Assembly (NCBI GenBank): GCA_032718475.1
Contig: JAUCBJ010000097.1
Span: 32,889-96,888, forward strand
Length of the DNA: 64,000 nucleotides
Reading direction: 5' to 3'
Source of the DNA: Nemertoderma westbladi
Taxonomy: Eukaryota > Animalia > Xenacoelomorpha
In this document: piece by piece, positions 11,774 to 38,046 of the stretch
How the letters are laid out: each line of letters opens with the position of its first letter
Numbering within the stretch: position 1 is the first letter of the stretch
The notes under the pieces: model-generated
What the model was told of the DNA's origin: nothing
The model's database searches: none
What the model saw: only the letters and a program-made list of their open reading frames with translations
Program-made: the position numbers and the translations under genes

Positions 11774-11810
11774 GTGAGTAATAATTGGTACTCTATACAC
11801 TAAGACTTAT

Positions 11811-12982
11811 TGTAAAAGCTTTTGTGGGATAACTGATTCGTTTGCCTTGCTAACCAGTTCCCCCCAGTCGCTAGAATACTCTAAAAAGGGATCTATAACT
11901 CGAATAGCGCAAGCTACCGGCTGATTGGCTGATTCGCTGTGCGAAGGGATCTGGGCTACGTTTGATTGTCCAACCAGCTTGGGAAAGTATCTGCCTATAG
12001 GATTTGAGTTGATTTTGATTTCGACCTATCACAGATCTGCTGAACTGAATTTTCCTATCTTTATGCTCTTTCTCTGTGTTGGGTGGAAGCCTTTGTAAAT
12101 AAGGTTATTCTTATCAGTTTTCAGTGTTGTTGGTCTTTCTTTCCTAAGCCAGGAGAGAACGGCTTGTAAATATTTTGTGCTTTTCTGTTTTAGTCTAACA
12201 CTAGTAGGCTTAATTATAAAGGGCATATATCCGTTATCAAACTGATGCACAACACTTAATATCAAACTAATGAACTTAACGCACACTGAATTACTGTGCA
12301 TACTTTTATATTGTTATACTGCTATTTACTGTCAGTTCTTCATAATATGGTTGATGAATTATTATATTTGGAATAACGATAAATAACCCCGAAACCCAAT
12401 ATTCTTGATATACCGAAGGTAAGAGAGAAAGGTTACATATAACGATTGTGACTTATGTTAAAGTGGTTTGAAGTGAATCTAATGTTATTTGATAGACCCT
12501 ACATGAGTCGGTCCGTGTTCCTTTTATATATAACTAAAATCAGTGAAGATCGGCAGATCAGTGTGCAGTATTGTGCAGCATCGTGTATGAGTGATACTGA
12601 TAACGAAGCATTTCCTAAAGAATGCGCCATATATGTGAATTATAACTAAGCCATATCGTTGTGAGTAGTTTAAGTCATAACTCTGTTTATATAGATAGAG
12701 CGCCACGTCCTAAAGGAACTGTTAATATTCCCCGAAGGTGAATAATATTGTCAGAGATTATATAATACTGTCAGTCGAATAATACATTAGGCTTACATAG
12801 CAATAAAATTTAAGCCGTCGAACCCAATCTCCCGGGTATATCCAGCGGGTGAATGATCGCGCACTGATTGGTTTCGACTAGTGTAGTGAATTAAATACTT
12901 GTCATAGACTAAAGGTGATTTATTATCTAGAAGACATCCTAATTTGGCGGGTTAAACTGCCAAAGGTCTAAAAGCGCGAACA
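11811..12982 (+). repeat. 5' LTR of BEL element
   Basis: Direct repeat of 36629-37800; three substitutions seen by eye. Confidence 0.97.
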
Positions 12983-13004
12983 ATAACGGATATAGCTTCT
13001 TTAT
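12983..13004 (+). promoter_or_regulatory. Non-tRNA primer-binding site, complementary to LTR 12216-12237
   Basis: ATAACGGATATAGCTTCTTTAT has no TGG; pairs with ATAAAGGGCATATATCCGTTAT (12 perfect pairs adjacent to the LTR end; 18/22 Watson-Crick plus 2 G-U). Confidence 0.75.
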
Positions 13005-13049
13005 TGCAGTAAGCAATAAAGTTGAAAGTACCGGTCAACCGGTAAACCT

Positions 13050-17956: not shown

Positions 17957-19164
17957 TGTGGAAGCGCTATCGGCGCCCGGTCCCGGATCCACGGCCACGC
18001 ACTATCCCGCTCGAGGGGTGAGCTGGAGAAGACTGAAGTGAAACTAGCTGCAGTATATCAGTATATTGTGTATTGAGTTGAGATACATGAATAACAAATA
18101 ATGATATGATACAATCAGACAATGAAACTAATAACGAACTACCTACAAAACATGACTGACAACCCTACACCGGTAAGTCATCTCAATAACTAAACTGAAT
18201 GATAACTGCTGACTGCGCCCTGCCCCCAGGACTATATCCCTGACAGCTACCGTACAACCAGCTGTTCTGTTCACACCCTAGGATACTACTATATCATACC
18301 TACTTAACCTATACAATACATACTAATCAGTCCAATAATACACCATCCCATAATACAATATCACATCCCCCCTTCTTAAAAAAAAAACTCGCCCACGAGT
18401 TTCTAGAACGCACAAACTACAAACCCCAAGTCTAATGACTACATCGACAAGTAAAGTCTACCTCAACGGCAGTATAGATACTGTATATGAAGCACGATAC
18501 CAACAATACATTCAACTAGCCTAAGGCCAATAATATCTAAATCGAAATTTCGTACTGCATGTATCGTAAGCCAGTATGACTAAAGAATAACACGTACAAC
18601 TCAATGAGTAACCAAATAACACTATATCAAGCATAATTGCAATCTATAAATCGCACCACCGTAAGTAACCGACCATAGTACAATCCATAAAATGTGTCAC
18701 TGCCACAATAAATCAAGGCTATATAAGTAAATAATTAATATGTGTATCTATCACATGAAAATGTATCCATACAGTATCTATCATAAACATGTATCCATCC
18801 ATACAGTATCTATCTATCCGTATCTTATGTAATAATAATACGTAATGACGTAACAAAAATATACAAAAAAATATATATGTTGGAGTTATGTACATAAGGT
18901 AAATAATAATACATACAGAATAGAGAATACTCTACAAAAGGTACATAACTGAGGCACAAAATATCTCGTGGGCGAATAACGGGTGAGAGCCGAGCAATGG
19001 AACGGAATTAAAAAAAATCACAATATCTAAATAATTCAGGATAACAATTTTTTTTTCCAAACAAAAGTTATTCATTGTTAATAAATGCAATTTATCTATG
19101 TAGCCATGGTAACCAGCAAACAGTCAAGTCACATCGACTACGTCTCTATAATTTGCGTCAACGG

Positions 19165-22100
19165 TCAACAGTCGCTATCGTCACCGTCGTAGACGTCCGC
19201 ACTGTCGTTCCCCCTACCTGTATCATCTCCCGTGGAGTTACTTTCTTCCCTATAGTATGGCTTTAAGTCCTTCACATTTACAATAATAAGTCGAGAACGT
19301 GGATTTGGTTTTCCCGATTTTCCCAACAGTTTAATGGCATAACTTGATTTACCAACCTGATCAACAATAGCATAAGGACCCCTAAACCTGAAGCTCAGCT
19401 TCGTATTCTTACCTTTGGTCGTCCTATCATAGTATAATACAGACTGCCCCTTAGTGTAGGTTCGAATGTTACTGCGTTGGCGCTTCCCCAGCTTACCATC
19501 GTGGTATTGTTTCTGTTTCACCTGTGTAAGCCTAAGAGCTTCCCTGGCTATCCCATGGGCCCGCTCCAAACGAAACCTTAATTCGTCTGCGAATGTTGCT
19601 TCATCTGCTAGCAAGCTGTACGGCCGGGCTATCTGCGTGTCTACTTGAGTTGTCGCCTGTCGCCCATACATTAAAGAGAAAGGAGTTTCCTTAAGTGTAC
19701 TCTGAATCGAAGTATTATAATTAAACGCAACAGCGGGAATAAACTCGTCCCAATTATGCGGGTTGGTAGCTGTCAACGATAACATGTTTACAGCTAACTG
19801 GTTAATGCGTTCTGTAAGACCATTGCAAGCTGGGTGGTATACCGACGTAAATACGGAAACAATACCAAACATTGCAGTTAATTCCTTGAATAAATTAGAC
19901 GTGAAATTACTACTCCTATCGCTTAATAAACTCTCGGGGGCGCCGTATATAAGAAAAATACCATCCACTAAAGCCCTGGCAACGGTAGCGGCTTCTTCAT
20001 TTGGTAACGGGAGGAGGGAAGCGTAACGAGTAAGATGATCAACTACTGTAAGGATAACCTTGTTACCTTTAGATGACGTCTGGAAGCCTTTAACGATATC
20101 AATTGAAAGGCGTTGCAAGACACGTTCAACGACTGGGAGAGGTGACAGTGGTTGGGTCTGAGGGACGCCCTTCCTACGCTGGCATGGGTCACATTCACGA
20201 ATGTGCTGCTTAACATTATCCTTTATACCTACCCAATAATACTTCATATGGATAGCACCTACCGTTTTATCAATACCCATGTGAGGCTTTTCATCGTGAC
20301 ACATGGATATAATTTGTTGCCTTAGTAACTTAGGAACTACAATCTGTACCTTCGATTTACCGTTACTTGTTGATAAATGGCAGAGTATATTGTCAACCAT
20401 AACATATTGTGCTCTAAATTTGAGCATGTAACGATACTCGTGTAGCGATTTGCGCACATCGGCATCGGCTATTGTAACAGCTGTGTCCAGTAATGTATCA
20501 ATCATAGGCTGTAAGTTATTGTCTTCTGATTGTAACTTACGCAAGGCAGTCAATGTGCAGTACTGTTGGCCGCCCGGAAGTGTCCAATTATTATTATTGT
20601 CATTATTGATAATGTATGTGACGTCACTATCGTGGTTGGGTCTGTCTGGGGAACTTAGAATGTCACATGGATTAGGTTTTGGCGGCTGCACGCCATTGTC
20701 TAGGTCCACCTCAACAGCGTTTGGTCTATCGCTATCATTATGTAGGTCTAAATTGGCTAGTCCTATCAAGCAATAATTATCTGACGAGACTGGGTCATTA
20801 TGCATAGGGGGAAGTAACGTATCCATGGCAACCGGTTCATTAGAAACGGTTTCGTCTCGTTGGTTGCCAGGGGTTACCTGTAATGGTATTCTAGAAAGAC
20901 AATCAGCGCGGTTAAGTCGGCCTGGCCTGTAAACAAAATTGAAATTAAATTCAGACAATTTAACGGCCCATCGCTGCAAACGCCCTGGAAGTTCGAGTTT
21001 GGTCTGTAAACAACTGAGTGGTTTATGATCCGAAACTAACGTAAATGCGCGGCCAATGAGGTAAAACCTGTGTTTCTGCATTGCCCAGACCACGGCTAAA
21101 GCCTCTAGCTCCGTAATGGACCACTTTCTCTCAGCGTTGCTTAGCGACCTCGATGAGTAAGCGATTACGCCCGAATCCTGATATAAAACAGCTCCTAAAG
21201 CTATACCGCTAGCGTCAGTCTCTAAGTAAAACGGCTGGTCGAAATCAGGGTGTTCTAGAATAGGGTTATTAATTAGGCGTTTCTTAAGGAATGTAAAAGC
21301 CTGCTCACAATCGCTTGTCCATACGAACTCTTGGTTTTTCCTTAACAACACGTTCAAGGGAGCTACAATCTTACCATAATCCTTAATAAATTTCCTATAG
21401 TAACCACATAATCCTAGGAAGCTATAAAGTTGCTTTGCATTGGCCGGTCGCGGAAAATCAACCATGGCTTGGACCTTATCCTTGTCCATATGCTGCCCTG
21501 AGCTATCTATCACATGGCCTAGGAATTTTACAGATGTCGCCCCGAACATGCACTTACTTGGTTTGAGCTTCAAGCCGAGATCGATAATTCTACGTAATAG
21601 AATGATAATAGTACTTACGTGGGTGTCCCATTCCCGGGTATACAGTATGACGTCATCGAGATAAACGAGAACGTACTCGATACCATGCAACGCTAATTGC
21701 ATAAGATTCTGGCAGCCAGAAGGGCTGGACTGGAGGCCAAAGGGCATTCTAACAAATTCGTAATGGCCACTATGTGTTACGAAAGCGGTTTTATGTGTAT
21801 CTTCAGCGGCTAAGGGTACCTGCCAAAACATCGATTTAAAATCGAGTGTCGTAAAATATTTGGGCCGTGCTGTGCCAATTTCCGACAACATTTCGTCTAT
21901 GCGCGGCAAAGGCCAAAATTGTGGCACAGCCGCAGCGTTAAGGCGGCGAAGATCAACGCAAAACCGCCACTTACCATCTTTTTTTTTACTTAATATTATT
22001 GGTGCCCCCCACTCACTGTTGCTAGGTTGAATAACACCTGCGGCTAACATATTGCCTACCTGTTTGTCAATCTCTTTCCTAAGCCCCATAGGTACTGTAC

Positions 22101-24633
22101 GTGGTCTCGTGTAAAAGGGCTTAGCCTCTGGTTTAAGTGGGATTCTATGTTCTAATAGGTCAGTCTTACCTATATCGCAATCTCCAAAGGAAAACGCCGC
22201 AGCATGTTTAGTAGCAATATCTATTAACTGGGTCCTCTGCTGAGGCTCCAAATGATCTAACGGTAATTCCTTAGCTAGATACTCCCTTTGTATGTCGCGC
22301 TCTACCGAGTCTTGTTTAACTTCTTTATTGAAGCTATCATTATCTACTGTACAATATAATGCAATTTTCTGATTGCGATATATTGTAACCGGGTAGTTAT
22401 TCGGATTTAATAACTGCACTGGGACCTTACCTGATCCGTCCAATGGGTTAGAAACTACACTTCGCGCAGTTAGATACGAACCCCTTGATTTTACTAACGG
22501 CTCTATCATTACCGACTCTGCTAATAATCCATTATCATACAATTTCCCTGCCAGTCTCACCTGTGTCCCTGCTGGGATCGTAGTCTTATCTATCGCAGAA
22601 ACAAAACAACAAAAAGGGTTTGTACTCTTACCGTTACCAGCGTTGCTGGGCGTGTTTAACCTCGCAAAGTACACTCTTTCCTGGTTGGTTAGAACCAAAC
22701 ACCTGTCTAGAAAATCTATGGACGCACAAGCAATACTTACGAAATCTAACCCTAACAGAAACGGGGGAATCCCAACACAAGATAAGTCTGCTACGTGGAC
22801 CTCGAGGGAAACCGAAAAATTGCTTGTAACTGATATTTGTAAAGTAGCCAATCCCATAGGTTTAACCTGTCCCCCTATACCGCTAATAGGTGGTAAATCA
22901 AGGGCACGCAACTGCACACCGGATGGGAGTTTCCTAACATCTATCAGGGAATAATGTGAGCCACTATCTAAAAATGCTTCACCATCCTCGTTTTCGATTC
23001 TTACTGGAAAATGCATGTCTAGTTTATTGGACACTACAGCTGTGTACATTGAAGCTGGATTGGGATTTAAATCCCGGTTTGTGTTAGGATTGGGATTAGG
23101 GTTAAAATTAGGGTTAGGGTTGTAAGTAGGGTTAGGGTTGTAATTCGGGTTAGAGTATTGCCTGTTAGGATTTGAGTTGATATTCGTACGTGGTCTAGTG
23201 CAATTTCGGCTATAATGTCCCGGTTCCCCACAGTTGTAGCAAGTAACCGAACTGTTGCTACTGTAGTTATTAGATCGGGGTGTAAACCCTCTGTTACTGC
23301 TGTCCCGTGAGTTGCCCGTACCGCTAGTACCAGTCCACCTTGCGTTGGGGTCAAACCAGTTATTCTGTCCCCGACCGTGATTATCGCGGCTATAATTGTT
23401 ATTGTAATTGGCGCGTGGGTAGCTACTGGTATTTGGTGTCTGATTGGACAGTTTCAGTTGTAAGTCCTTCAGTTGTCTTTCTAGATAACTCATATCAGTC
23501 TGTTTTGGGGACTGTTCTGAAAAACTAACCTTGCTGTATGAAGTTTGTCTGGGACTGGGAGGCGGTTCCCTGGGCCTATTACTCTGGTCCCTACGATCGC
23601 CCAATTCACAGCCAAATATACCATTATTTTCCTGTCTTAAATAAAGTTCCTCGCGCCTAGCACGGTGAACTGCCTCCCCAAAATTGCGCGGTTCTGTTAA
23701 CCGTATACTTCTCGCTAATTCAGGGGAAATCCCTCTATAAAATATTGGCAAAAGTAAAAGTTCCCGTTGCTCAGTGCTCATTCCCGGAAAAGCTTGTACC
23801 CCTAAACTAGTTATAATATCGGAAAATTCAGAAATAGTTTCCCCCACCTTCTGTTTACGATCTAGTAATTCATTGTACACAAAACTAGTATCCTGGGGGC
23901 AAAAACGGGCACGTAAAATATCACGAATTGCATCATAGTTTTCCTGTTCATGTTCAGCCAGTTCATCAAGGACACGTGCAGCCCTACCGGTTAAATAAAC
24001 AGGCACAATCTTACCGAGAGCGTCGTTCTTCCACCCCCTGAGTCTGGCGATCCGTTGCACCGATCTGTTCCATGCCTCGAAATCACCAGAACCATCAAAG
24101 CAGTCCGGTTCCTTGCGGATGCTTTCCATAGTCGGATCTCGTTGTCGAGTAGTCGACGGAGCAACTGTTGGAGAATCCCGTCGTCGAGTAGTCGGCGAAG
24201 CAACCGTTGGAGAATCTCGTCGTCGAGTAGTCGGCGGAGCAACTGTTGGAGAATCTCGTCGTCGAGTAGTCGGCGGAGCAACCGTCAGAGAATCCCGTCG
24301 TCTAGTTGTCGGCGGAGCAACCGTCAGAGAATCCCGTCGTCTAGTAGTCGGCGGAGCAACCGTCAGAGAATCACGTCGTCGAGTAGTCGGCGGCCCTGAA
24401 ATTGATCGGTTCAAGGATCCCCGTTGCCGTCGCGATCCGTGTAACGAGGGCGAGAGAGAACTACGACGCAACTTTGAAACAGCTCCCGATGACTTGTAGA
24501 GGAACGAATGTTCGTCCGTGCTGTCTGGATGAGGAGAACCAGAAGCGGAACGCAGTTGCTGCCGATAGGAAGGCTTACCCGTGGGAAAGTTAACGCTTCC
24601 AGCTTGTTTGCGCTCGGGTCGACGCGCAGGCAT
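19165..24633 (-). CDS. gag-pol: Gypsy single-ORF gag-pol (1822 aa)
   Basis: CYNCGEPGHYSRNC, FLDSGS, WRFCVDLR, MPFGL, YLDD, ETDAS, HHCC plus D,D,E integrase in PR-RT-RH-IN order. Confidence 0.96.
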   Translation of the reverse strand: MPARRPERKQAGSVNFPTGKPSYRQQLRSASGSPHPDSTDEHSFLYKSSGAVSKLRRSSLSPSLHGSRRQRGSLNRSISGPPTTRRRDSLTVAPPTTRRRDSLTVAPPTTRRRDSLTVAPPTTRRRDSPTVAPPTTRRRDSPTVASPTTRRRDSPTVAPSTTRQRDPTMESIRKEPDCFDGSGDFEAWNRSVQRIARLRGWKNDALGKIVPVYLTGRAARVLDELAEHEQENYDAIRDILRARFCPQDTSFVYNELLDRKQKVGETISEFSDIITSLGVQAFPGMSTEQRELLLLPIFYRGISPELARSIRLTEPRNFGEAVHRARREELYLRQENNGIFGCELGDRRDQSNRPREPPPSPRQTSYSKVSFSEQSPKQTDMSYLERQLKDLQLKLSNQTPNTSSYPRANYNNNYSRDNHGRGQNNWFDPNARWTGTSGTGNSRDSSNRGFTPRSNNYSSNSSVTCYNCGEPGHYSRNCTRPRTNINSNPNRQYSNPNYNPNPTYNPNPNFNPNPNPNTNRDLNPNPASMYTAVVSNKLDMHFPVRIENEDGEAFLDSGSHYSLIDVRKLPSGVQLRALDLPPISGIGGQVKPMGLATLQISVTSNFSVSLEVHVADLSCVGIPPFLLGLDFVSIACASIDFLDRCLVLTNQERVYFARLNTPSNAGNGKSTNPFCCFVSAIDKTTIPAGTQVRLAGKLYDNGLLAESVMIEPLVKSRGSYLTARSVVSNPLDGSGKVPVQLLNPNNYPVTIYRNQKIALYCTVDNDSFNKEVKQDSVERDIQREYLAKELPLDHLEPQQRTQLIDIATKHAAAFSFGDCDIGKTDLLEHRIPLKPEAKPFYTRPRTVPMGLRKEIDKQVGNMLAAGVIQPSNSEWGAPIILSKKKDGKWRFCVDLRRLNAAAVPQFWPLPRIDEMLSEIGTARPKYFTTLDFKSMFWQVPLAAEDTHKTAFVTHSGHYEFVRMPFGLQSSPSGCQNLMQLALHGIEYVLVYLDDVILYTREWDTHVSTIIILLRRIIDLGLKLKPSKCMFGATSVKFLGHVIDSSGQHMDKDKVQAMVDFPRPANAKQLYSFLGLCGYYRKFIKDYGKIVAPLNVLLRKNQEFVWTSDCEQAFTFLKKRLINNPILEHPDFDQPFYLETDASGIALGAVLYQDSGVIAYSSRSLSNAERKWSITELEALAVVWAMQKHRFYLIGRAFTLVSDHKPLSCLQTKLELPGRLQRWAVKLSEFNFNFVYRPGRLNRADCLSRIPLQVTPGNQRDETVSNEPVAMDTLLPPMHNDPVSSDNYCLIGLANLDLHNDSDRPNAVEVDLDNGVQPPKPNPCDILSSPDRPNHDSDVTYIINNDNNNNWTLPGGQQYCTLTALRKLQSEDNNLQPMIDTLLDTAVTIADADVRKSLHEYRYMLKFRAQYVMVDNILCHLSTSNGKSKVQIVVPKLLRQQIISMCHDEKPHMGIDKTVGAIHMKYYWVGIKDNVKQHIRECDPCQRRKGVPQTQPLSPLPVVERVLQRLSIDIVKGFQTSSKGNKVILTVVDHLTRYASLLPLPNEEAATVARALVDGIFLIYGAPESLLSDRSSNFTSNLFKELTAMFGIVSVFTSVYHPACNGLTERINQLAVNMLSLTATNPHNWDEFIPAVAFNYNTSIQSTLKETPFSLMYGRQATTQVDTQIARPYSLLADEATFADELRFRLERAHGIAREALRLTQVKQKQYHDGKLGKRQRSNIRTYTKGQSVLYYDRTTKGKNTKLSFRFRGPYAIVDQVGKSSYAIKLLGKSGKPNPRSRLIIVNVKDLKPYYREESNSTGDDTGRGNDSADVYDGDDSDC

Positions 24634-24802
24634 ACAGTGGAATAATCGTCAGAGACCCGCCACCCACAGTCTGACTGCCTGATGCAGTGATGGGTACGGT
24701 AGTTGGTCGTGGTAGCGATAGCCTGGTAGGCCAGACAGAGTTAGAGTACCTGTTGCCGGTAGCAGGTAGCGCGGTAGGCCTGTCAGACTGTCAGTTTCTC
24801 TT

Positions 24803-24820
24803 CTCCCGGACAAGCCCCCA
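24803..24820 (-). promoter_or_regulatory. tRNA-Pro primer-binding site of Gypsy element
   Basis: Minus strand TGGGGGCTTGTCCGGGAG versus canonical tRNA-Pro PBS TGGGGGCTCGTCCGGGAT. Confidence 0.88.
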
Positions 24821-25232
24821 TGTGGAAGCGCTATCGGCGCCCGGTCCCGGATCCACGGCCACGCACTATCCCGCTCGAGGGGTGAGCTGGAGAAGACTGA
24901 AGTGAAACTAGCTGCAGTATATCAGTATATTGTGTATTGAGTTGAGATACATGAATAACAAATAATGATATGATACAATCAGACAATGAAACTAATAACG
25001 AACTACCTACAAAACATGACTGACAACCCTACACCGGTAAGTCATCTCAATAACTAAACTGAATGATAACTGCTGACTGCGCCCTGCCCCCAGGACTATA
25101 TCCCTGACAGCTACCGTACAACCAGCTGTTCTGTTCACACCCTAGGATACTACTATATCATACCTACTTAACCTATACAATACATACTAATCAGTCCAAT
25201 AATACACCATCCCATAATACAATATCACAGAT

Positions 25233-28200
25233 TGGTTAGGTAAGTCTCATGAATACCAAAGTTCTATGGTCATTGGAGCTGTGGCTTCTACTTTACCGAA
25301 AGGTGGGGTAGGCACACGCTGGGATAAGAAAGTACTATATATGATGGAACAACAACGACGAGACCCTACCATGGCTGATCTCATGTCATTCTTGGATGGA
25401 GAAGTGAAATTGCAACTCCTCAAGCAGTCCCGAGAGAAGACACCGGAAAACAAGGTAAGTGAAAAACCCGTCTCTAGGAGAAAGGTAACACCAGTGTGTT
25501 ATACAGACGACGGCGAAAGCCAGACTTCTCCAGGAGAAGATAGCGGGAAAGACACTGATAGATCTTATTATGTCAATAAAATGCCTAAAGATCAGGTAAG
25601 TAAATTCAAGTCTCGAGCAAATGACAGGAGAGAACAGGTAAGAAAAACTCCTCCCACGTCTCCCAAGAGAATTCAGGTGAGAAAGCCCGAAGAAAAGGCA
25701 AGTGTACACAATGTGACTCAGAATAAGGTAAGTAACATCAAACCGAAATGTGCGCTGTGTGACGGGACCCACCATTTGAATAGGTGTGATGAATTTCTAA
25801 AGAAATCATTAACGGAGAGACGCGAAGTCATGTGGGATAAGCGGTTATGTTATAATTGCCTCAGACAAGGAGACCAACGGCGAACCTGTTTCTCTGACAT
25901 AAGGTGTGCAAAGTGTGGTGCGAAACATCATATCTTGTTGCACGCTGAATTCGATCGAAATAGTCCGAATCAGGTAAGTGATTCCGAGCTACATGTCCAA
26001 TTCAGTGATGTGAACGACACTGATCAATCTGAGATGGAAGGATTCTATACAGACGAGTTCTCCGACGAAAACGAATCCTGTTACATGATAAATACCGCAG
26101 TGTATCGAGCACTCACATATGAAAAGGATACAGACAACGACTTCACTCTAACTACTTCTGAGCGACAACCATCTTGGAAAGAGCCATCTTCCAATGTAGG
26201 GATCCGAGAGTTTCCTGTGGTGCAAGTAAGGGTTCACGGACCTAAGGGGAGTTATGTAGTGAACGCCCTCCTGGACTCCGGCAGCACAGGAACATTCATC
26301 GACAAAGAGCTAGCCGAAGATATATTTGCTGGACAACCCAAGTTCCAAACTAAGCTCAACATGTCCGGCATTATGCAAGTTTGGAAATCTACAATAACAG
26401 CTGATTATTATGTAGGCGCGTTGTCCACCCCACAAGACGAACTAGGAGAACATAGCATAAGGTCAGTGAAAATGGTGGCTATAAAGAACTTCGCTACTAC
26501 TCAAGCAGACCTTTATAATTGGGACGAGGATGAGAGCATCCAACATCTTAACATACCTCGATTCCAGACTGATTATCCTGGAGTGCAAATGCTCATCGGC
26601 CAAAACGCGCATGAGGCGCTGGAGACATTGGAAAAACGGCCTGCTCAACCGCAGCCACTACAGACCTATGCGGTAAGAACTAGAGTAGGTTGGTACTTTA
26701 CTGGCCCTTCCCGTAGAACACTCAAAGAAAGACTACCGCAAGAGCGCGTCTGCCAGGTGAGTGAATGGGAAGATGATACTAGTGAAGGAGACGATTTAAC
26801 TGAGGGAACCCCATACTCCTCAGATAACGACGACATTCACCAGCTTTTTGATGAGCAGAATACCATCGACCTCCTTAAGGAAAACGATGCTTGGCAAAAC
26901 CAAGTGAACTTATGTCAACTTCTTTATCCAACAGAACGGGAAGCTTATAACGACGAGTTAAATGACGTCATTGAGCGTCATAATGCCAAGACTCGGGATG
27001 AACATGCCGTACGATTCTTTACGCAAGAGGCGGTAGAGCCCAATTCCTACGATAAAGCCTTGTCGGTGGAAGAGGAAAGGGCCAAGCAGATCCAAGAGAC
27101 AACTACACGTTTCCTCAAAGATCAAGGTAGGTATGAAGTCGGTCTACCTTTCCGCAAGAAAGAACCGAAGTTCATCAATAACAGACCTTTGGCGGAAAAA
27201 AGAATCGCGCAACTCCATCGACGCCTTACGGCTAATTCTTCAGCTAAAGCAATGTATCAAACACAGCTGGAAAAATTTATTAGTAAGGGATACGCGGAGA
27301 GAGTACCGGAAGAAACACCTGTGACTGAAAGAACGTATTACTTAACTCACCATTACGTTCCTAAACCCGGTAAGCCACACGAAGTGAGAGTAGTGTTTGA
27401 TGGCTCCGCTCTTTACATGGGTCAATCCCTTAACTCTGAATTGTTACCCGGACCCAACTTGCTTCAATCTTTGTTGGGAATTCTTTTAAGATTGAGACAA
27501 TATTCGATTGCTTTCGCCTCCGATATAGAAGGCATGTTCTTACAAGTCAAGGTGTTGGATAGGGATCGGGATAGTCTACGATTTCTGTGGTGGCCCGAAG
27601 GAGACCTCAACCAGAAACCGGTGGAGTACTGGATGACCATCCAGGCCTTTGGGATAATCTCAAGCCCTTCCAACGCCTGTTCGGTAGTGCGTACCACTGC
27701 AGAGGACAACCGAGAGGCATTCTCTAAGGAAGTGATCGACAACATCAAGAGAGACATATATATGGACGACAATCTGAAGTCCCTCCCATCAGTTGAGGAA
27801 GCCATTGAGGTCGCTAAAGGAACGGTAGAGTGCTTAAAAAGAGGTGGGTTTCGATTAACGAAATTCACCAGCAACTCCCGTGAGTTTCTGGAGTCGATCC
27901 CTGCGGAAGATCGAGGAGCGAAAGATCTCGATTTAATCAAAGATGATCTGCCAGAAACCAAGACACTAGGCTTGAAATGGGACACAGAGCGAGATATCCT
28001 GTTTTTCCAGCTAAAACAGCGAGATAATCCAGTTCGAACCAAACGGATTTGCTTAAGTATACTGAGCACTTATTTCGATCCATTGGGATTTATTAGCCCA
28101 GTTATATTGATTGCTCATAGTTTGGTACAACAAATGTGGCTTGAAAACCACTCATGGGACGATCTACTTAAGGGAGAATTATTGAAGAAGTGGATGGAAT

Positions 28201-30644
28201 GGGAAGATTCTCTGCCGGCTATCGAGGATTTTATAATTTCCCGTTCATATTTTGGTCATGTTCTCCCTACGTATTCCTATCAACTCCATGTGTTTGGAGA
28301 CGCCAGCGATATGGGAATAGGTATAGTAGCCTACCTAAGAGTGGAAACTCCGGATGGAATCAAAGTCGCCTTGGTTACTTCTAAGGCATTAATCAACAAC
28401 AAGTTGAAAGTTCCTCGAGCGGAGTTAAAGGCGGCTCTATACGCTACAGCCATCGGCCGGAATGTAATGGAACAGATTGACTATCCATTAGAGAAAACTG
28501 TCTATTGGACCAACGCTTTACTCGTGTTAGAGTATATCACCAATGAAGTCTGTCAGTTCAGCGTCTTCGTTACCAACAGAGTAGCCATCATACTTAGTCG
28601 CACGACGATGGATCAATGGAGACATTGTCCCGGAACGATTAATCCAGCAGACATCGCTTCCAGGGGAGCGACTCCAAAGGAATTGGTAAATACTCCCGAA
28701 TGGTTAGGAGGACCTGACTTTCTCTACAGAGAAGAAGAAGAATGGCCTCCCCATCTCACAATAGCAGAAATCAGACAGGCCAAGGGAGCGGAGAAAGTTA
28801 AACCCAAAACTCGAGCGAGTAAATCGAAGTTGTTTAAACCTGCGGTTGATCTATCTGTATTATTTACTTCCGGAGAGGATGCTTTGGATCAGAAACCCAC
28901 CGCCACGGATAAAGAAGTCTTGGAAATCCGTGACAAGGATTGGAAATCTGGAATACCAGATGTCGCGCAAGGACACTCACCTCTCTTGCAGAGAGCGATA
29001 CGTCACTACAGTTCCTGGAATCGGCTCTGTAAAGCCGTCACCTATTTAAAACGATGTTTTCATCATCGTTACTCCGGGACAAAGACCAATAGTGATGATG
29101 CTCCATCAACATCTGCACGAGTCCATGTTGTTAAAGACCTTCCCCAATACAAGATATCCGACAGGTTTCTAAAGGAGAAGATCAGTTACCAGGAGCATGA
29201 TGAAACCAACAAACAGATGCTGAGACTCCTACAATGCTATGAGGATCCCGATAAGTATTTCCTGTTGTTAAGAAATCCGCAGATGCGCTTAAGGGATCGT
29301 TTCTCTAGTACCATGATAGATGGGTTAATACGTGTTGGAGGCAGGCTAACCAACGCCCCATTATCCTTTGACACTAAGTTTCCCATCCTCATTAGAAATC
29401 TTGACATACAAATCAAGATAATTGTAGATGTTCATAGCAAACTGTATCATGCTGGAAGAGAATGAGTTCTGAGCGAAATTCAAACTCGCTACTATTTTTA
29501 TAAACCCCGTAGGGCTCTGAACCAAGTTCTTAGGAACTGCATACCCTGTAGGAAAGCATTCAGTAGGCCTTTAACACAGCGAGAGGCAGAATTACCTAGG
29601 GAAAGAGTAAGCTTCTATGAACCACCCTTTACTAATACCGGTGTGGATTTATTTGGCCCTATTGAAGCATATCGTGCCCGGACTATAGTCAAGAGATGGT
29701 GTGTCATTTTCGTTTGTATGACTTGTAGAGCTATCCATCTCGATATGGTAAACGATCTATCCACCAACAGCTTCGTGTTGAGTTTACGACGACAGATCGC
29801 TCGCTTCGGAACCAGTAACACGATGAGATCGGATAAGGGAACGAACTTCATTGGCGCCAACAACGAAATTCAAGCTTACGTAAAGGACTGGAACAAAAGA
29901 CAGGTGGACGATCAGCTAAGGATAACAGCGTCTAGCTGGACCTTCAACGCCGCCGACGCCCCTTGGTGGGGAGGAAGTTGGGAGAGATTGATTAGGAGCG
30001 TGAAGACTGCGTTCCACTTTATTGTGCCTTGTCGCGCTTATCTCACCGACGAACTATTGCGGACGTTAATGGAGGAAATCGCCGCTTATCTCAATGAAAG
30101 ACCGCTTATGCCAGTCTCTTCAAGTCCTGATTCCCTGGAAGCGCTAACACCCGCGCACTTTCTACTGAAGAAACCCGTAGCCATGCTCCCACGATCGGAG
30201 ATCACAGACGGAGACGAGTACTGCCGTCGAACCTGGCAACTTATGCAGTTGCTATCCCGTCGTTTCGCTGACCATTTCGAGAAACATTACCTGCCCACTC
30301 TACAATTTCGAACTAAGTGGTTTGCACAGCAAGAAAACGTCAGCGCTGGAGACATGGTGCTTATTGTGGACCCCGATCTCCCACGTAAGCGATGGCAAAC
30401 AGGACGTATCATCGAGACTTATATCTCGAGCGATGGTTTGGTGCGATCAGTAGAGCTCGTCGTCATGCGGCGGAACTTTAAGAAACCAGGGATAGTCTTT
30501 GAGACTCAACAGCTCAATCGCCCAGTGGGTCGTTTATGTTTACTGGAAAGAGACAGAGAGCTCTCCGGAAACTATGGAAGGCAAGAAATTCTTCCCACGA
30601 CCACTTCCCTAATCCAACCGACATCTAGGGACTCCCCAACTTAA
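25233..30644 (+). pseudogene. pol: BEL gag-pol, part 2 (Zn knuckles, PR, RT, RNase H, IN) with premature stop at 29463-29465
   Basis: In frame with part 1 after removing the insert (RQLD|WLGK); LLDSGST, VRVVFDGS, YMDD, VFGDAS, PRAEL, GVDLFGP, SDKGTNF, GGSWERL; AGRE*VLSE is probably TGG>TGA. Confidence 0.92.
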
Positions 30645-32296
30645 TATCGTTCGGAGTGGGCGTGTGACTCTATTATTCATATTATTTTATTATTTTTATA
30701 TTTATGTATGTATTACTATGTAATTTTATTATAATCGTTTTATTTAATTTAGTAGAATATTATTTAGCGATTATTTTGTAGAATAGTGCAATATATTCGT
30801 GTTTATTACGTACGTAATTACTTATATTATATTTAGTGCGACGGCGAAGAAATAATAATTTTTTCTCTTTCCTTACTGTCCGTATTATATTATAAATACG
30901 TAACTACAGTAAGATGACATATCCGTACTTATTAAAGTACAATAAAGCCACTACTATATTTAAGTATTATTGGTAGGCAGAGTATTAGGAATGCAAAGTT
31001 CAGATCCTCGTGTCTCGGCTAAACCAAGCTCTGGGTAGACCTTGGAAACGACTTGCCTCTTCACACTGACATTGCTTCGTGCGATATTGCTCTCATACCG
31101 TATATTAAATAATACATATAGTAGCGTGATGTCCCTTTAACAGTAGCGTATAACGCAAAATAAATCTGTTAAACCCTTTGACCATCTGTAATTCTAGTCG
31201 ATTAAGATATCGCGGCACCCACCGATATACTTGAAAGACAAATTCTAGAATCAGTGGTTAACGTCCCCAGACAAGTTCTGGAATAAATTGGTGCCCATCT
31301 CAAATATTAATTAATTAATATTTGCAAAATCTAATAAATCAAAATCTGTAAAATTCAGATCCTTCAATAATTCTAGTCAATTAAGATATCGTAGCATTTA
31401 CCGATATTCTTAAAAAAGACAATTGTCACAGAATTAAGGATCTTGTGTCCCCAGACATGTTCTAGAATCAAAACATGTCCATTTAATTATCAAATAATAA
31501 AATTTCAGGGGATCAATTTAAATTCATGCCTTTTAATGAATTTAATAAATTGCCATTTTTACGCAATTTATAAAGTTCCCAAAATTCCATTAATTAATAG
31601 ATCAAGGGAGCGGAGATTTATCTTATTATGCATATGAGTGTGCGAAAGTCTCCCAAACATAGTCAATAGCCGATAAAATTCATAAAGTCATGTATAAAAC
31701 AGAACATTGACTATTAAAGAATACTATTAAATAACATCCCAGATCTGTATGCATTGGAATTACCCTAATTCTACCGCTAGCTTTGCATAATGTCACCCTA
31801 GCAACAACCACGCTAGAATTAGAATGGAGTTAAAAGAACAATAGAAAGCTTGTCCCATTGAATAGCATAGGGAATAAATAGCGCACTACTAGTATCCAAG
31901 GATACATAATAATACAGTGACATTCTGGAAGGCATTGACTAACGGACAAATGGCCCGAATGTGCGTAGTTGTGACCAGTTGTGTGGTATTTGTGAGTTTA
32001 TAGGTGAATGTTACTGCTAAAGTGTGTTTACAGTAGCTAGTCGCAATCGTAAAAGTAACCTAACTCTCCAAGGAATACCTGAAGTACATCTAAGCCTTTG
32101 GGACGGACAGTTGAGTGACTTGTGCCGGTTATCGTTGTCGTTGTACGGCTACGTCGTTGGCGAAAGTATAGCGACAGCGGTACATCGGCGCTGAGAATCT
32201 CATACTGTCCGGGGGCAAGGGAGAAATAGGCAGCGACGCCCGCTCGCCTAACAATATATAAACTCATTATAATATTGGTGAACTCGTATAGCAGAT

Positions 32297-35200
32297 ATGA
32301 CTGAATTAATAGAAGATGATCTTGGTATCAGGGAGAGATATACTCTACCTATACAAGCGTTTGTCGATAGCTTGATACGCGGCGACGCTGATCCAACTAC
32401 TACGGAGGACGATGGTCGTTATATCGAACCGCCAATGTCCCAGGAGCAACTTACGCGTGAATTGGACTATAGAAAGTTCACGGCTCGCTATACGCATCGT
32501 AATGGTATGTATATGGACTTCTTAACTACCGGCCACCCTATCGATTTACACGATACGGACGATGTAGACACCGAAAGGGAAATGGTTTTATTTAAATATC
32601 ATACCCAGCGGAGTCGAAACGATAAATCGAGAATAGAACACGAGAACTCTATTCGAAACAAACTCGAAAGAGAAGATGTTGAAGAACCCGATAAACGTAA
32701 CGGTTTCAACGATTATCTAGAATTCTTAAGAGAGACCTATCTCAATGTTGCCAGTGAACAAAACCTCGAAACTCGATATCCTCAAGGTATACATCCAGAT
32801 CCTATGATGGAACTCAAACGGCTCTATTTTACGATGATGTATCCTACTGCTGATCGACCGCTACCTGTCGTTCCAGATAGTTTCGAACAGATGGAGGAAT
32901 ATTGTAAAACTGGAGAGCGATCACCCGCGTTTCCTCTTCAAGACGTGCGTCTTTGGTATTACTGTGACGAATGCCCTAGACCTAACCAGCAAATCGAAAG
33001 GCATAAACATCCTCGGAGACGTTGCGCTAAACACAGTTTTACGCGATATACTTATGGGGGTTTCGAGCATAACCTTTTCGACGTATCACCTACGGTCGCG
33101 CGCCTTAAGCGATCATTGAATAAACCCATGATCAGAGTTCCGGAATACTCGGTCAGACCTCCCCATTCCCAAGTGATACCTCAAACTCTAGATCCTAATA
33201 GTATTACGGATCCTCCCGAACTGTACTCACTGTTCAAAGATCTGGTGTTACCTGAACAGTTGATTGGTGCCACTCCGGTAGTGGGTTCGTTGGATATTCG
33301 CCAACCTTACCTCGCTGGACTAGGACGCGGTCATCTAATATCACCGTTTAACCCCTACAACCGTCCTGGCCTTCCTCCGATCCAACCTGTTACAGAAGTC
33401 GAAGAGAGCGTGATACGAAATGCATTGGACGCTATTCGGCAGAAAATCGGAAAAGGAACTTACGATTGCTTGGAGAAACGTAAATTGCAACAACAAGTCC
33501 AAGCGGTGAAAGAACTAGCTTTACCCCAGTTCGATAGAGAAATACAAAATCTAGAGGAGGACATCGAACGTGGACGAACCTACTCTTTACAGGAATTCCT
33601 GGACGAGCGCTTGCAACAACAAGCGGAGGAAAATCAGCTCGAGGAGAGACATATAGAGCTGACTGAGAGGGAAGAAGCATCTTTAGCCCAACCAGAAGCT
33701 CAAATTCTTGTGACGGATCTCTATTCCAAAACGATTCTCCACCCCTCGATGGTTCCTCATTTTAAAGACAAGCTCTTTGCTACGGTACAGCCTCAACCGG
33801 TTAACACCGATCTCAGATCTCAAGAGCTCGTTGCTGACGCTCCCATGCTACAACGTCCACCCGTCGAGGCTGCTCGTGTCGATGGCGTACTTGTTGAGCC
33901 TCCGGACAATAGAGCGGATCTTGTCCGTCGCATGGTGCACGATGTTAACATACGCGCTAGACCTTTGCCGGACTCATTTTATGGAATTAAGGATCATCCT
34001 TATTACGTCAATTTAAAGCAATATTACATGGTAAAACCAGAAGATCCTACGCATAGTCTGAAGTTTCTACCATTGATCAATCCTCTCGACCTCGTCGAAC
34101 TCGAACAACTACAAAAACATCTAGATCAGCTAGTTAAATTAAACTCATTTCGAAAACCGTATAATATTTCCAGAATAGAGAAAGAAATATTACCCCCGTA
34201 CAATCTTGATGGATTCATTAAAACTCGATTGGTACACTGGAATCTTGACGTGTTATTCGAGGAAGAAAGAATAAAACGATATGGAGATGTGGAAACCTAT
34301 ACTACACAATGCTTAAAGTATAGAGATTTACCCAATGCTAGCGAATGCACTACTTTGTGGCATCCCGTGGGAATGACTCTCGAAAACGCCACTAAAGAAT
34401 GGAATGAGACTCTTAACGTTATCGAGATGTATGGCGTTGTTACTTATGACAACGAAGGTAGCGTTCCGGTGGGAGAACTAGGAACTACGCGAATGATACA
34501 TATACGAGGACTCGCTGGTTCTACCCACGTATTCACTCGAGCGTGTTCCGACATGATCGATTATTCTTTTGAAACCCTTACGGAGACACAAAAGAAACTT
34601 CGACATGGACAATTCGAGCTCGCGCAGCGTTACGTCACCGACACCGAGCGCAAACCGGCCATGGGTATCGACGGATCAATGTTACCCCAACCCGTGCTCG
34701 AAATGTTGTTTAACGAAAGAATCCTAAAAATCGGCTCAGCTGTTTATGGAGATCTCCAAAACGACTTCCGGAATATGGAAAACATTCCATACCCTTTCGT
34801 TGATACTCAGCTGATTGCTCCTTGGGCCGAAGGCCGAGGTTTCTTTCGCACTATGTATGCCAATACACCCAGCGACATTACTAAAGTACAACGGACGTCC
34901 ATCGGACATCTTGCCTTTCAAGAATATGGATGGAACTTCAAAGTTGGAAATCCTATCAATTACCAGCAGGTATATGGAGATCATTACTCCCGTTTATATT
35001 TTGACGGACCATTAACTGCGCCTGGTGCAGTATATAGCTTTATGAGTGTTCCACTTCGCCCTTCCTTAGCTATATACACGATCTTTGAAAACGCAGCACT
35101 TGCCGGTTGGCTAGCCGATGTGTGCAGTCGTACCATACGCGCTCACCCGTTAATACTTGGAACTAAACTCGCCAAGTTAGACGAACACAATAAGTTCATA

Positions 35201-36550
35201 CGTTTCGAATGTTTCCGGCGCTTTCTGACTCCGTTCCGTAACGTCGATAGTCAGTTCAAGGACCGCGCGCTGACCAAGCTCAGTCTTAGAGACTCAGCTG
35301 CGGAGAAACTGAGTAGCGCTGGATTTGCCGTCTTTCAAGACGTTTGTATACAGAACCTACATTCATCCGTTATACAAAGACCCCGAATATCTACAGGTTA
35401 TTCTGTCGTGGAAATACAGACAGTGGGTCCACTTACGGAAACCGACGCACCCACTTCGTCTATGCAGCTGGAGGATGAACCAGTATGCTTGGAATCAGAA
35501 GCGATTCAACCTACGGCTTCCCGGAGCAGTGACAATGATTATGTCATAGAGTGGTATCAAGGTCCACAGCGTCTCACAGCGTACGATTATCGACACGCCA
35601 ACTACGTTTCCCGAAAACGTTGTCGATTATGCGCATCGAGAGACCACTTCACTCCTCTAGACTCGAGCGTACCTTGTTCCTATTTCCTCAAACAACCGAT
35701 GATGGAAATATATTGTGCTTATTGCCGGCTTAATAACTCTCATATATTTGCCGTCTGCCCACAATTTATGACTCAATGTCACTACTGCCAACTTAAAGGA
35801 CATGAAAGTTACAATTGTCCCTTTAATCGCGATTTAGAGAGCGTAGACGAGATGATCACCCTGCGATACATCCGAGCTTGGGAAGCGAACGCCGATTTAC
35901 ATTGCGAATCCCGACATCGCTATTACCCTGGACGAGCTTACGAGGGAGTTTACGTGTTCCATCCTTATCTATTCGCGTCGATTGAACAGAAAACACACGT
36001 ACCAAGTTACGAGTTAATGAAGCGTGTTGGTGAGTGTATTTCCACCAAGTTTGTCAGGAAATACCTTAGAAACGTTAACCCTAATGATATAACCACATAT
36101 CACCTGATCAATTTTATCCGTCAGGACCCTGGGTATGGCGACATCTTTGTGAACTCGCATCCTGAACTACAGGAAATATCTCGGCGACCATATGAATATC
36201 GAACCCGAGAACGCGAGCTGGAGAGAACCATTAAACCGAGAAAGTTCCTCACCACTCACGGTCCACCCACCGCTAGTGTCCAGACGACCCGTCAAGGACC
36301 CGTAGGAGCTGCTGTCCTGAGACGCGCTCTAAAGGCCGTTAGACCTCACTCCACTGAGGTTGATATTAATCAACCAGGTACTTCGACCGGCGGGTATACC
36401 GATCGTAACCCTGCACCTTCTGATGCAATTATATTGCACCCTTCGCCTAGGAGCTACAGCCCTCCTCGTAAAGTGGCTCGCCCCAAAGAGAAAAGGACTC
36501 TTGCTAGCTTTAAAAAACTGCGTAAACGCCGTCCACGCAAGAAAGACTAA
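32297..36550 (+). CDS. Extra BEL ORF: 1417-aa protein with putative DEDDy (WRN/MUT-7/EXD-like) 3'-5' exonuclease, CCHC zinc knuckles and basic C-terminus
   Basis: Intact ORF between pol and 3' LTR; ExoI VVTYDNEG, ExoII LPQPVLEMLFNERILKIGSAVYGD, FVDTQLIA, SIGHLAFQEYGWNFK, ExoIII-like PLRPSLAIYTIFE; CHYCQLKGHESYNC; KKLRKRRPRKKD. Confidence 0.8.
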   Translation: MTELIEDDLGIRERYTLPIQAFVDSLIRGDADPTTTEDDGRYIEPPMSQEQLTRELDYRKFTARYTHRNGMYMDFLTTGHPIDLHDTDDVDTEREMVLFKYHTQRSRNDKSRIEHENSIRNKLEREDVEEPDKRNGFNDYLEFLRETYLNVASEQNLETRYPQGIHPDPMMELKRLYFTMMYPTADRPLPVVPDSFEQMEEYCKTGERSPAFPLQDVRLWYYCDECPRPNQQIERHKHPRRRCAKHSFTRYTYGGFEHNLFDVSPTVARLKRSLNKPMIRVPEYSVRPPHSQVIPQTLDPNSITDPPELYSLFKDLVLPEQLIGATPVVGSLDIRQPYLAGLGRGHLISPFNPYNRPGLPPIQPVTEVEESVIRNALDAIRQKIGKGTYDCLEKRKLQQQVQAVKELALPQFDREIQNLEEDIERGRTYSLQEFLDERLQQQAEENQLEERHIELTEREEASLAQPEAQILVTDLYSKTILHPSMVPHFKDKLFATVQPQPVNTDLRSQELVADAPMLQRPPVEAARVDGVLVEPPDNRADLVRRMVHDVNIRARPLPDSFYGIKDHPYYVNLKQYYMVKPEDPTHSLKFLPLINPLDLVELEQLQKHLDQLVKLNSFRKPYNISRIEKEILPPYNLDGFIKTRLVHWNLDVLFEEERIKRYGDVETYTTQCLKYRDLPNASECTTLWHPVGMTLENATKEWNETLNVIEMYGVVTYDNEGSVPVGELGTTRMIHIRGLAGSTHVFTRACSDMIDYSFETLTETQKKLRHGQFELAQRYVTDTERKPAMGIDGSMLPQPVLEMLFNERILKIGSAVYGDLQNDFRNMENIPYPFVDTQLIAPWAEGRGFFRTMYANTPSDITKVQRTSIGHLAFQEYGWNFKVGNPINYQQVYGDHYSRLYFDGPLTAPGAVYSFMSVPLRPSLAIYTIFENAALAGWLADVCSRTIRAHPLILGTKLAKLDEHNKFIRFECFRRFLTPFRNVDSQFKDRALTKLSLRDSAAEKLSSAGFAVFQDVCIQNLHSSVIQRPRISTGYSVVEIQTVGPLTETDAPTSSMQLEDEPVCLESEAIQPTASRSSDNDYVIEWYQGPQRLTAYDYRHANYVSRKRCRLCASRDHFTPLDSSVPCSYFLKQPMMEIYCAYCRLNNSHIFAVCPQFMTQCHYCQLKGHESYNCPFNRDLESVDEMITLRYIRAWEANADLHCESRHRYYPGRAYEGVYVFHPYLFASIEQKTHVPSYELMKRVGECISTKFVRKYLRNVNPNDITTYHLINFIRQDPGYGDIFVNSHPELQEISRRPYEYRTRERELERTIKPRKFLTTHGPPTASVQTTRQGPVGAAVLRRALKAVRPHSTEVDINQPGTSTGGYTDRNPAPSDAIILHPSPRSYSPPRKVARPKEKRTLASFKKLRKRRPRKKD

Positions 36551-36620
36551 TTGTTTAGAGTATTTATGTATATTAGAAATTGTGATTTCGTATATTTTAT
36601 AGACTTAAATCCCATTTTCT

Positions 36621-36628
36621 GGGAGCGG
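36621..36628 (+). promoter_or_regulatory. Polypurine tract of BEL element
   Basis: GGGAGCGG directly before the TG of the 3' LTR. Confidence 0.7.
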
Positions 36629-37800
36629 TGTAAAAGCTTTTGTGGGATAACTGATTCGTTTGCCTTGCTAACCAGTTCCCCCCAGTCGCTAGAATACTCT
36701 AAAAAGGGATCTATAACTCGAATAGCACAAGCTACCGGCTGATTGGCTGATTCGCTGTGCGAAGGGATCTGGGCTACGTTTGATTGTCCAACCAGCTTGG
36801 GAAAGTATCTGCCTATAGGATTTGAGTTGATTTTGATTTCGACCTATCACAGATCTACTGAACTGAATTTTCCTATCTTTATGCTCTTTCTCTGTGTTGG
36901 GTGGAAGCCTTTGTAAATAAGGTTATTCTTATCAGTTTTCAGTGTTGTTGGTCTTTCTTTCCTAAGCCAGGAGAGAACGGCTTGTAAATATTTTGTGCTT
37001 TTCTGTTTTAGTCTAACACTAGTAGGCTTAATTATAAAGGGCATATATCCGTTATCAAACTGATGCACAACACTTAATATCAAACTAATGAACTTAACGC
37101 ACACTGAATTACTGTGCATACTTTTATATTGTTATACTGCTATTTACTGTCAGTTCTTCATAATATGGTTGATGAATTATTATATTTGGAATAACGATAA
37201 ATAACCCCGAAACCCAATATTCTTGATATACCGAAGGTAAGAGAGAAAGGTTACATATAACGATTGTGACTTATGTTAAAGTGGTTTGAAGTGAATCTAA
37301 TGTTATTTGATAGACCCTACATGAGTCGGTCCGTGTTCCTTTTATATATAACTAAAATCAGTGAAGATCGGCAGATCAGTGTGCAGTATTGTGCAGCATC
37401 GTGTATGAGTGATACTGATAACGAAGCATTTCCTAAAGAATGCGCCATATATGTGAATTATAACTAAGCCATATCGTTGTGAGTAGTTTAAGTCATAACT
37501 CTGTTTATATAGATAGAGCGCCACGTCCTAAAGGAACTGTTAATATTCCCCGAAGGTGAATAATATTGTCAGAGATTATATAATACTGTCAGTCGAATAA
37601 TACATTAGGCTTACATAGCAATAAAATTTAAGCCGTCGAACCCAATCTCCCGGGTATATCCAGCGGGTGAATGATCGCGCACAGATTGGTTTCGACTAGT
37701 GTAGTGAATTAAATACTTGTCATAGACTAAAGGTGATTTATTATCTAGAAGACATCCTAATTTGGCGGGTTAAACTGCCAAAGGTCTAAAAGCGCGAACA
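36629..37800 (+). repeat. 3' LTR of BEL element
   Basis: Copy of 11811-12982 followed by TSD CTTAT. Confidence 0.97.
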
Positions 37801-38046
37801 CTTATTATTTAACAACAATTAATTTTATTCCTAGAGATATAACTACGATAATACTACGAGAATATAATAGTTACTAGTAGAAATTGTAATGCCAAGAAAA
37901 ATACAACAACGATGTATTAATTTTTTTGAAATAATATAGAAATCTAAAGAGAGTAGATCGTGAGAAGGAAAGTCAAAGGGAAATTACTCTTAACTCTATA
38001 GATTTCAACTATTTATTATTAACAATTATTTGTTTTTATTTCACAG

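Follow-up and report, generated by a model that had tools for sequence, protein, structure and literature searches.

The window analysed here is a stretch of 64,000 nucleotides (nt) from Nemertoderma westbladi (GenBank assembly GCA_032718475.1, contig JAUCBJ010000097.1, positions 32,889 to 96,888 of the forward strand), and all positions are counted within it unless a protein or another contig is named. It contains a BEL/Pao long terminal repeat (LTR) retrotransposon whose third open reading frame, ORF3, encodes a protein of 1417 amino acids (aa). As judged by sequence comparison, ORF3 carries a DEDDy-family 3'-5' exonuclease domain that is homologous at all five catalytic positions. ORF3 runs uninterrupted from its ATG between pol and the 3' LTR. 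The original prediction, made from the letters of the window, had placed a 4.25-kb uninterrupted frame in the env position within an LTR pair, and this is what was found (32297-36550, with LTRs at 11811-12982 and 36629-37800). The parts of ORF3 are the following.

32297..36550, + strand: ORF3, 1417 aa
34394..35131, + strand: predicted DEDDy 3'-5' exonuclease domain, about aa 700-945, with D718, E720, D819, Y927 and E931
35621..35965, + strand: three motifs resembling zinc knuckles (35621-35818), with conserved sequence downstream (to aa 1223)
36473..36547, + strand: basic tail, defined by Lys/Arg count

The motifs of the exonuclease domain follow the order known from WRN, MUT-7 and EXD proteins, and both order and coordinates agree with the original prediction. 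D718 lies at 34448, E720 at 34454-34456, LP..V at 34682, ILKIG at 34721, D819 at 34751, FVDT at 34796, SIGHL at 34895-34912, Y927 at 35075, and E931 at 35087-35089. The catalytic residues of RNase D, namely D28, E30, D85, Y151, and D155, were paired by HHalign with D718, E720, D819, Y927, and E931 in two alignment modes. The fifth position, in the ExoIII motif, is Glu (E931) instead of Asp, as had also been predicted. A K-I-G lead-in is present at ExoII, and an insertion of 25-30 residues follows the first strands of the domain. In NrnC, the catalytic spacing is equal to that of RNase D (PMC8492067, in excerpt).

An RNase D profile was built from 43 domains, and 40 shuffles each and the reversed alignment served as controls. 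The window domain alone scored 42.9 (86.4%) against this profile, while its 40 shuffles reached at most 19.7, which places the motifs beyond chance. Alignment A3, composed of four sequences (the ORF3 domain and its distant relatives P0003, P0004, and P0005), scored 52.5 with a probability of 93.7%; the 40 shuffles remained at or below 17.2 and the reversed alignment at 14.3. In HHalign, the pair of A3 and RNase D reached 93.7-94.7% (E 2e-7 to 1e-8), against 0.2% for the reversed control. A3 was also searched blindly, in six frames, against 151 bacterial genomes, with 33 matches at E<=1. PF01612 matches contain 25 of these, including all of the best 12, when 150 of the 374 PF01612 matches were compared; the other 8 fell outside the listed PF01612 matches, and two of them may be unlisted ones. 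Blind matches with a listed PF01612 match sit on RNase D-sized frames, and none is on a PolA-sized frame. The Atlas language-model search with the exonuclease region placed 25 of 30 matches in the PF01612 set, with a score of 0.93.

The domain lies under the Pfam threshold. Pfam gave no family in ORF3 and no match for this domain in the window, and the relative P0003 matched PF01612 at E 0.036. The Pfam check proposed with the original prediction was thus negative for ORF3, and the assignment comes from the profile comparison with RNase D (94.7%). Searching the family profile against the Protein Data Bank (PDB) gave 7 matches; among them, Egalitarian (E 0.5, the best DEDD match) and EXD2 (E 1.1) were not significant. 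PDB sequence searches returned nothing significant for the exonuclease region alone, for ORF3 residues 1-700, or for P0005. A DEDDy-family exonuclease domain with knuckles is supported. The narrower MUT-7/Nibbler type may apply, but the EXD-type hints are weak and the strong comparison is with RNase D only. Two structure predictions were of low confidence (predicted local distance difference test, pLDDT, 31.5 and 36.4). On these low-pLDDT models, Foldseek found no match at E<=0.001 and listed EXD2 at rank 4 (E 0.6), and a wide fold search gave a best Z of 5.0, to an unrelated fold. An HRDC domain downstream of the nuclease had been suspected by eye. It was not recovered with an RNase D-type HRDC profile of 38 domains (best HHalign 1.4% in ORF3; 0.15% for aa 941-1035). 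In comparison with cellular PF01612 enzymes (RNase D, EXD2, Egalitarian, WRN, MUT-7/Nibbler, and Rrp6), the five catalytic positions of ORF3 align with those of RNase D, but ORF3 differs in its ExoIII Glu, its insertion, its fusion to knuckles, and the lack of a detected RNase D-type HRDC.

Three knuckles of Cys-Cys-His-Cys (CCHC) type had been proposed behind the nuclease. All three were located, with spacings of CX2CX4HX9C, CX2CX5HX4C, and CX2CX4HX4C, and only the third is canonical. In the basic tail, 13 of the final 25 residues are Lys or Arg, as expected from the original prediction, and the tail is a possible nuclear localisation signal by its composition. No transmembrane segment was found in ORF3, also as predicted (highest 19-residue hydropathy 1.19; N-terminus 0.49), and an env identity was ruled out for lack of a membrane segment. 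For residues 1-700, no relative was detected. This part has an additional Cys/His cluster at aa 223-246 (32963-33034) and a Gln/Glu-rich stretch at aa 395-460 that is probably a coiled coil. PHROGs gave no meaningful match for ORF3, searches of phages and plasmids gave no usable match, and the Atlas language-model search with the knuckle region gave only leads below 0.9.

The exhaustive homologue search compared aa 680-1250 of ORF3 with 1.84 billion representatives and found 4 proteins at E<=0.001. P0006 matched through its knuckles only and was set aside. In the remaining P0003, P0004, and P0005, which are 575-648 aa long, an exonuclease-like region is followed by a spacer, then by three knuckles, and finally by conserved sequence. 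The homologues sought by the original prediction thus exist and share the layout of exonuclease and triple knuckle, but their position between LTRs was not recovered for P0004, whose contig, L001, has no pol and no second LTR. For the knuckles of P0003, matches to nucleocapsid knuckles (E 1e-4) and to AIR2 (E 0.064) were obtained. Word-indexed homologue searches returned the query itself only, the homologue searches gave no close host homologue of ORF3, and viral contigs held no relatives of P0002, P0003, or P0005.

The catalytic positions vary among these proteins. P0003 has Glu at the last position, like ORF3; P0005 has the complete D-E-D-Y-D set; and P0004 has lost most of the set and has a doubled knuckle domain. 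ORF3 might be an adaptor whose exonuclease fold binds RNA with little or no catalysis (compare Egalitarian and EXD1) and which serves in the export, localisation, or shielding of the unspliced RNA of the element, in a Rev- or CERV-like manner. The ExoIII Glu of the window and P0003 and the catalytic loss in P0004 would suit this role, as would the top rank of Egalitarian among the DEDD matches, non-significant as it is. Inactive DEDD derivatives that retain RNA binding are named in the excerpted text of PMC5408684, Cer1 has a gene for a factor that exports its RNA from the nucleus (PMC10309623, in part), and the RNA of the present element would be very long. Nevertheless, D718, E720, D819, and Y927 are all preserved, an acidic residue remains at the fifth position, and P0005 is complete. 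Retention of these residues at approximately 25% identity suggests metal binding, and we consider the adaptor role unlikely.

The outer element is assigned to BEL/Pao because DUF1759, Peptidase_A17, and DUF5641 are present. Its features, with those of the element nested in it, are the following.

11806..11810, no strand: left target-site duplication CTTAT
11811..12982, + strand: 5' LTR, 1172 bp, TG...CA ends, found by self-comparison
15236..17956, + strand: 5' part of the BEL/Pao gag, split by the nested element (DUF1759, E 1.9e-8)
17957..25229, - strand: nested Ty3/gypsy element with two identical 409-bp LTRs and an open 1822-aa gag-pol
25230..30644, + strand: remaining BEL/Pao gag-pol, with knuckles, protease, reverse transcriptase, Peptidase_A17, integrase, and DUF5641
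30645..32296, + strand: non-coding spacer between pol and ORF3, 1.65 kb
36621..36628, + strand: purine-rich tract of 8 nt ahead of the 3' LTR
36629..37800, + strand: 3' LTR, 1172 bp, found by self-comparison
37801..37805, no strand: right target-site duplication CTTAT

By its predicted proteins, the element belongs to BEL/Pao (Belpaoviridae), with a gag-pol in the order protease, reverse transcriptase, RNase H, and integrase and with BEL-specific domains (Pfam Peptidase_A17 E 6e-34 and DUF5641 E 8e-20); the YMDD of the reverse transcriptase is at 27759. It is a young, multi-copy jumping element. The two LTRs have 3 differences over 1172 bp, and the 5-bp duplication CTTAT is identical at both outer ends. 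One LTR pair flanked by matching CTTAT means that the whole 26-kb stretch is a single insertion. The window copy is non-autonomous because its gag is interrupted by the 7.3-kb Gypsy element (17957-25229) and its pol by an in-frame stop (29463-29465). ORF3 is intact although gag and pol are broken. A TATA-like box at 32255 in the spacer, 42 nt upstream of the ORF3 ATG, is a candidate internal promoter for ORF3. The GC content at third codon positions (GC3) is 0.42 in ORF3, against 0.41 and 0.45 in gag and pol.

Without the nested Gypsy, the element is 18,717 bp long, roughly double what is given for Belpaoviridae genomes, 4.2-10 kb (PMC8742986). Its LTR length (1172 bp; family range 0.2-1.2 kb) and its purine tract before the 3' LTR fit the family. 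With such a genome, the domain could proofread or trim the complementary DNA (cDNA) of the element and help to sustain its length, like ExoN of nidoviruses. Some DEDDy enzymes are DNA proofreaders, and cleavage of DNA is described for EXD2 (PMC7968707 and PMC6648332, both in excerpt). This role is quite improbable, as ORF3 is separate from pol with no fusion, the listed blind matches are on frames of RNase D and not PolA size, and the knuckles favour RNA. Furthermore, the giant LTR elements treated in the excerpted part of PMC6431247 do not include the bdelloid ones with DEDDy genes.

Several neighbouring features were observed. The nested Gypsy element (17957-25229) is very young and has identical LTRs, an open gag-pol, and a TGG-type primer site; its ends have a direct repeat of 3 bp only (GAT), and a 39-bp tandem repeat lies inside its gag. 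The leader of the outer element (12983-15235, 2.25 kb) holds tandem duplications of 38, 289, and 123 bp. Satellite arrays surround the element at 3587-7088, 7651-11461, and 38169-54720, with units of 37, 36, and 22 bp in 94, 106, and 754 copies, and the long open reading frames within them are repeat artefacts. A 750-bp repeat occurs at 2043-2795 and 59481-60237 in opposite orientation, with 96% likeness. Rfam gave 0 matches across the window and L001, so a hammerhead ribozyme like that of Terminons was not found in them.

The stretch or part of it is contained in six of seven listed sequencing runs (4 studies), none of which is recorded as RNA, and four runs were compared with window positions 29500-38100. 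The depth of single ORF3 contigs reaches approximately 9x that of the flank (257 against 28.5 in run X1 and 343 against 37.8 in run X3), which indicates that ORF3 is multi-copy. Other copies show joints 30448-32262 and 30554-31794, where the end of pol is joined to the spacer or to the region just before ORF3. An independent insertion of ORF3 was ruled out by the single target duplication around the whole element together with this linkage, and the membership of ORF3 in the element, on which the original prediction depended, is upheld.

Selection was assessed on the best-supported 40 of 1443 variant rows, which do not amount to a full estimate of dN/dS (the ratio of non-synonymous to synonymous rates). 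Of these variants, 26 fall within ORF3, and 16 are synonymous and 10 are not, where 28.5% would be expected to be synonymous (p 4.5e-4). Among the variants that segregate, by their frequency in X1, 15 of 16 are synonymous; for the selection check proposed earlier, this subset points to constraint. In contrast, 9 of the 10 differences private to the window copy are non-synonymous. The codon of E931 has no variant among these 40 rows. None of the best 12 of 114 indels is in ORF3. Contig pieces with at least 10 differences (21 kept, among 32 listed) are gapped in 2 of 16 cases inside ORF3 (7 gap letters, 599 substitutions) but in 4 of 5 cases outside it (42 and 83, respectively). All variant measures agree in direction, and on these sequence data ORF3 is under purifying selection.

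This bears on the view that ORF3 is a passenger, a recent capture of a host gene or an unrelated insertion without a role. The private non-synonymous differences and the abundance of derivatives without the domain speak for it; such private changes are, however, expected for any copy after insertion. Against it, variants across the family are overwhelmingly synonymous and free of gaps, the homologue searches gave no close host relative, GC3 resembles that of gag and pol, and other copies join pol, spacer, and the ORF3 region. A neutral passenger was rejected, and the passenger view in general is very improbable. The derivatives in question skip 33655-36415 and are common in runs X1 and X3 (depth 356-763). 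They lose 2.76 kb of ORF3, including the nuclease and knuckles, and have about 33 other letters at the joint. They are a probable non-autonomous subfamily, and their abundance indicates that the exonuclease domain is not required in cis.

The primer site of the element is unusual for its family. The 18-nt site complementary to the 3' end of a host tRNA, described for Belpaoviridae, is not seen here, and complementarity to the LTR of the element itself is found instead. Two segments are involved.

12216..12237, + strand: candidate self-primer, a part of the LTR with complementarity to the adjoining leader (duplex -22.6 kcal/mol)
12983..13004, + strand: primer-binding position, pairing with 12216-12237

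There is no TGG tRNA-type start behind the 5' LTR; a tRNA library was not searched, so that an internal tRNA-fragment primer is possible. Immediately after the 5' LTR, 12 nt are perfectly complementary to LTR positions 12226-12237. Complementarity of 12 nt was reached by 17 of 20000 shuffled LTRs and by 1 of 3770 other anchors. The duplex of leader and LTR extends to approximately 21 bp, with a per-pair probability of 0.82-1.0 in predicted folds of the 5' RNA. The nested Gypsy served as a control and has a TGG site and just 4 nt of LTR self-complementarity. By eye, position 12190 has an initiator-like TTAGTC, and a TATA-like box precedes it by about 28 nt. A primer position complementary to a segment of the own LTR is shared with Tf1 and Tj1 (PMC4600332, in excerpt). 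Those are, however, Ty3/gypsy elements that use the very 5' end of their RNA as primer, whereas self-priming is here predicted from sequence alone.

L001, which encodes P0004, has an inverted pair at 2931-2943 and 3191-3203, between the ORF3 relative and a downstream frame (14 of 500 shuffles). Past the P0004 gene (L001 2073-3685), a purine tract is followed by TG (~2064-2074), about 1.1 kb of non-coding DNA, the inverted pair, and a frame running off the contig edge. The predicted layout fits the order of ORF3, LTR, self-complementary primer site, and gag.

Given such a primer site, the nuclease could process the RNA of the element itself. A fragment of the transcript, once the nuclease had trimmed its 3' overhang back to the LTR-leader duplex, would then serve as a tRNA-free primer. 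This is consistent with the missing TGG site and the exact LTR complement, with the similar inverted pair at the P0004 locus, and with 3'-end processing being the first guess for the bdelloid genes in the excerpted part of PMC5408684. Yet P0004 looks catalytically dead beside this second self-complementary site, Tf1 self-primes through RNase H alone, by the titles of works cited in PMC4600332, and L001 is not established as an LTR element. We regard processing of the own RNA as doubtful, though worth weighing.

The reading that we favour, tentatively and with somewhat less than even confidence, is that ORF3 acts in trans as a probably nuclear, RNA-binding nuclease that trims or destroys small or antisense RNAs silencing the element. 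ORF3 would be expressed from its own promoter in the spacer, the basic tail would import the protein into the nucleus, the knuckles would bind RNA, and the DEDDy domain would be catalytically active on silencing RNAs, small or antisense. Action in trans is suggested by the separate reading frame with its TATA-like box and by the copies that skip 33655-36415. RNA is preferred to DNA as the substrate because of the knuckles and because the domain resembles RNase D and EXD proteins. Silencing may be the target since DEDDy genes occur in both LTR and Penelope-like elements, which prime and integrate differently, so that host RNA silencing is the simplest shared pressure. Lassa NP is a viral DEDD nuclease that acts against host RNA sensing, according to published abstracts.

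Several points weigh against a silencing-directed nuclease. Catalysis may be dispensable because ExoIII has Glu (E931) and one of the three relatives, P0004, is without the catalytic set. The N-terminal half of ORF3 is unexplained, and the self-complementary primer site offers the nuclease another substrate. For the bdelloid DEDDy ORF3s, the excerpt of PMC5408684 reports no clear link to copy number, and small RNAs are still drawn to them. Activity, expression, and localisation of the protein are predictions.

DEDDy genes in retroelements have precedents. The Juno and Vesta families of bdelloid rotifers are of the Ty3/gypsy type. Together with Athena elements, they carry DEDDy ORF3s with the motif changed to DEED (PMC5408684, in excerpt), and Athena/Terminon Penelope-like elements share the DEDDy gene (PMC5408684 and PMC6431247, both in excerpt). 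In its excerpted part, that 2017 paper proposes the same two functions as the earlier reading here, anti-silencing and RNA processing. An exonuclease in the env position is thus not new as an idea. By these partial accounts, the ORF3s of Juno and Vesta resemble the present one in being DEDDy proteins from a separate third frame behind pol, in the place of env, with no membrane segment and one change of Asp to Glu. In contrast, the motif here is D-E-D-E and the host is BEL/Pao. The present protein is 1417 aa long and has three knuckles and a basic tail, whereas the excerpt mentions only a Cys-His-Cys motif, for two Vesta ORFs. In addition, the bdelloid extra frames show no significant departure from neutrality in the excerpt of PMC5408684, unlike the purifying selection indicated here. 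The DEDDy proteins of Juno, Vesta, and Athena were compared by description, not by sequence, and none surfaced in the homologue searches.

BEL/Pao elements with third genes (roo, Tas, Cer13, and Atlas; PMC8742986, PMC9094657, and PMC13524379) share with the present element the gag-pol order, the LTR length, and a third frame behind pol. Their third genes encode envelope glycoproteins, whereas ORF3 encodes a predicted soluble nuclease-knuckle protein. The ICTV profile gives only env-like third genes for Belpaoviridae (PMC8742986), the word "exonuclease" is absent from the main text of PMC9094657 and PMC13524379, and env is the only BEL/Pao third gene mentioned in the excerpted part of PMC3118150. 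Literature searches found no BEL/Pao exonuclease; most subscription papers, Repbase, GyDB, and older nematode Cer papers were outside their coverage, and a prior mention there is possible. The novelty claimed by the original prediction therefore holds for BEL/Pao elements within this coverage but not for LTR retrotransposons as a whole, for which DEDDy ORF3s were published in 2017. New here are the occurrence in BEL/Pao, the fusion to knuckles, the length of 18.7 kb, and the sign of selection.

DEDDy nucleases seem to have been acquired by at least three sorts of retroelement. The BEL/Pao case adds a superfamily, a clear signal of purifying selection, which the rotifer cases lack, and one catalytically complete and one apparently dead relative. 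A single soluble domain thereby opens two questions, namely whether transposons use enzymes against small-RNA silencing and how primers are made without a tRNA site. It is possible, though on balance not probable, that the element is the type member of a lineage of very large BEL/Pao elements in which an active, RNA-directed exonuclease with knuckles took the place of env and a self-made primer that of the tRNA, with the nuclease either trimming that primer or suppressing small-RNA silencing. If true, ORF3 would either be a primer-trimming nuclease or, among animal LTR retrotransposons, the first known case of an enzyme that suppresses small-RNA silencing.

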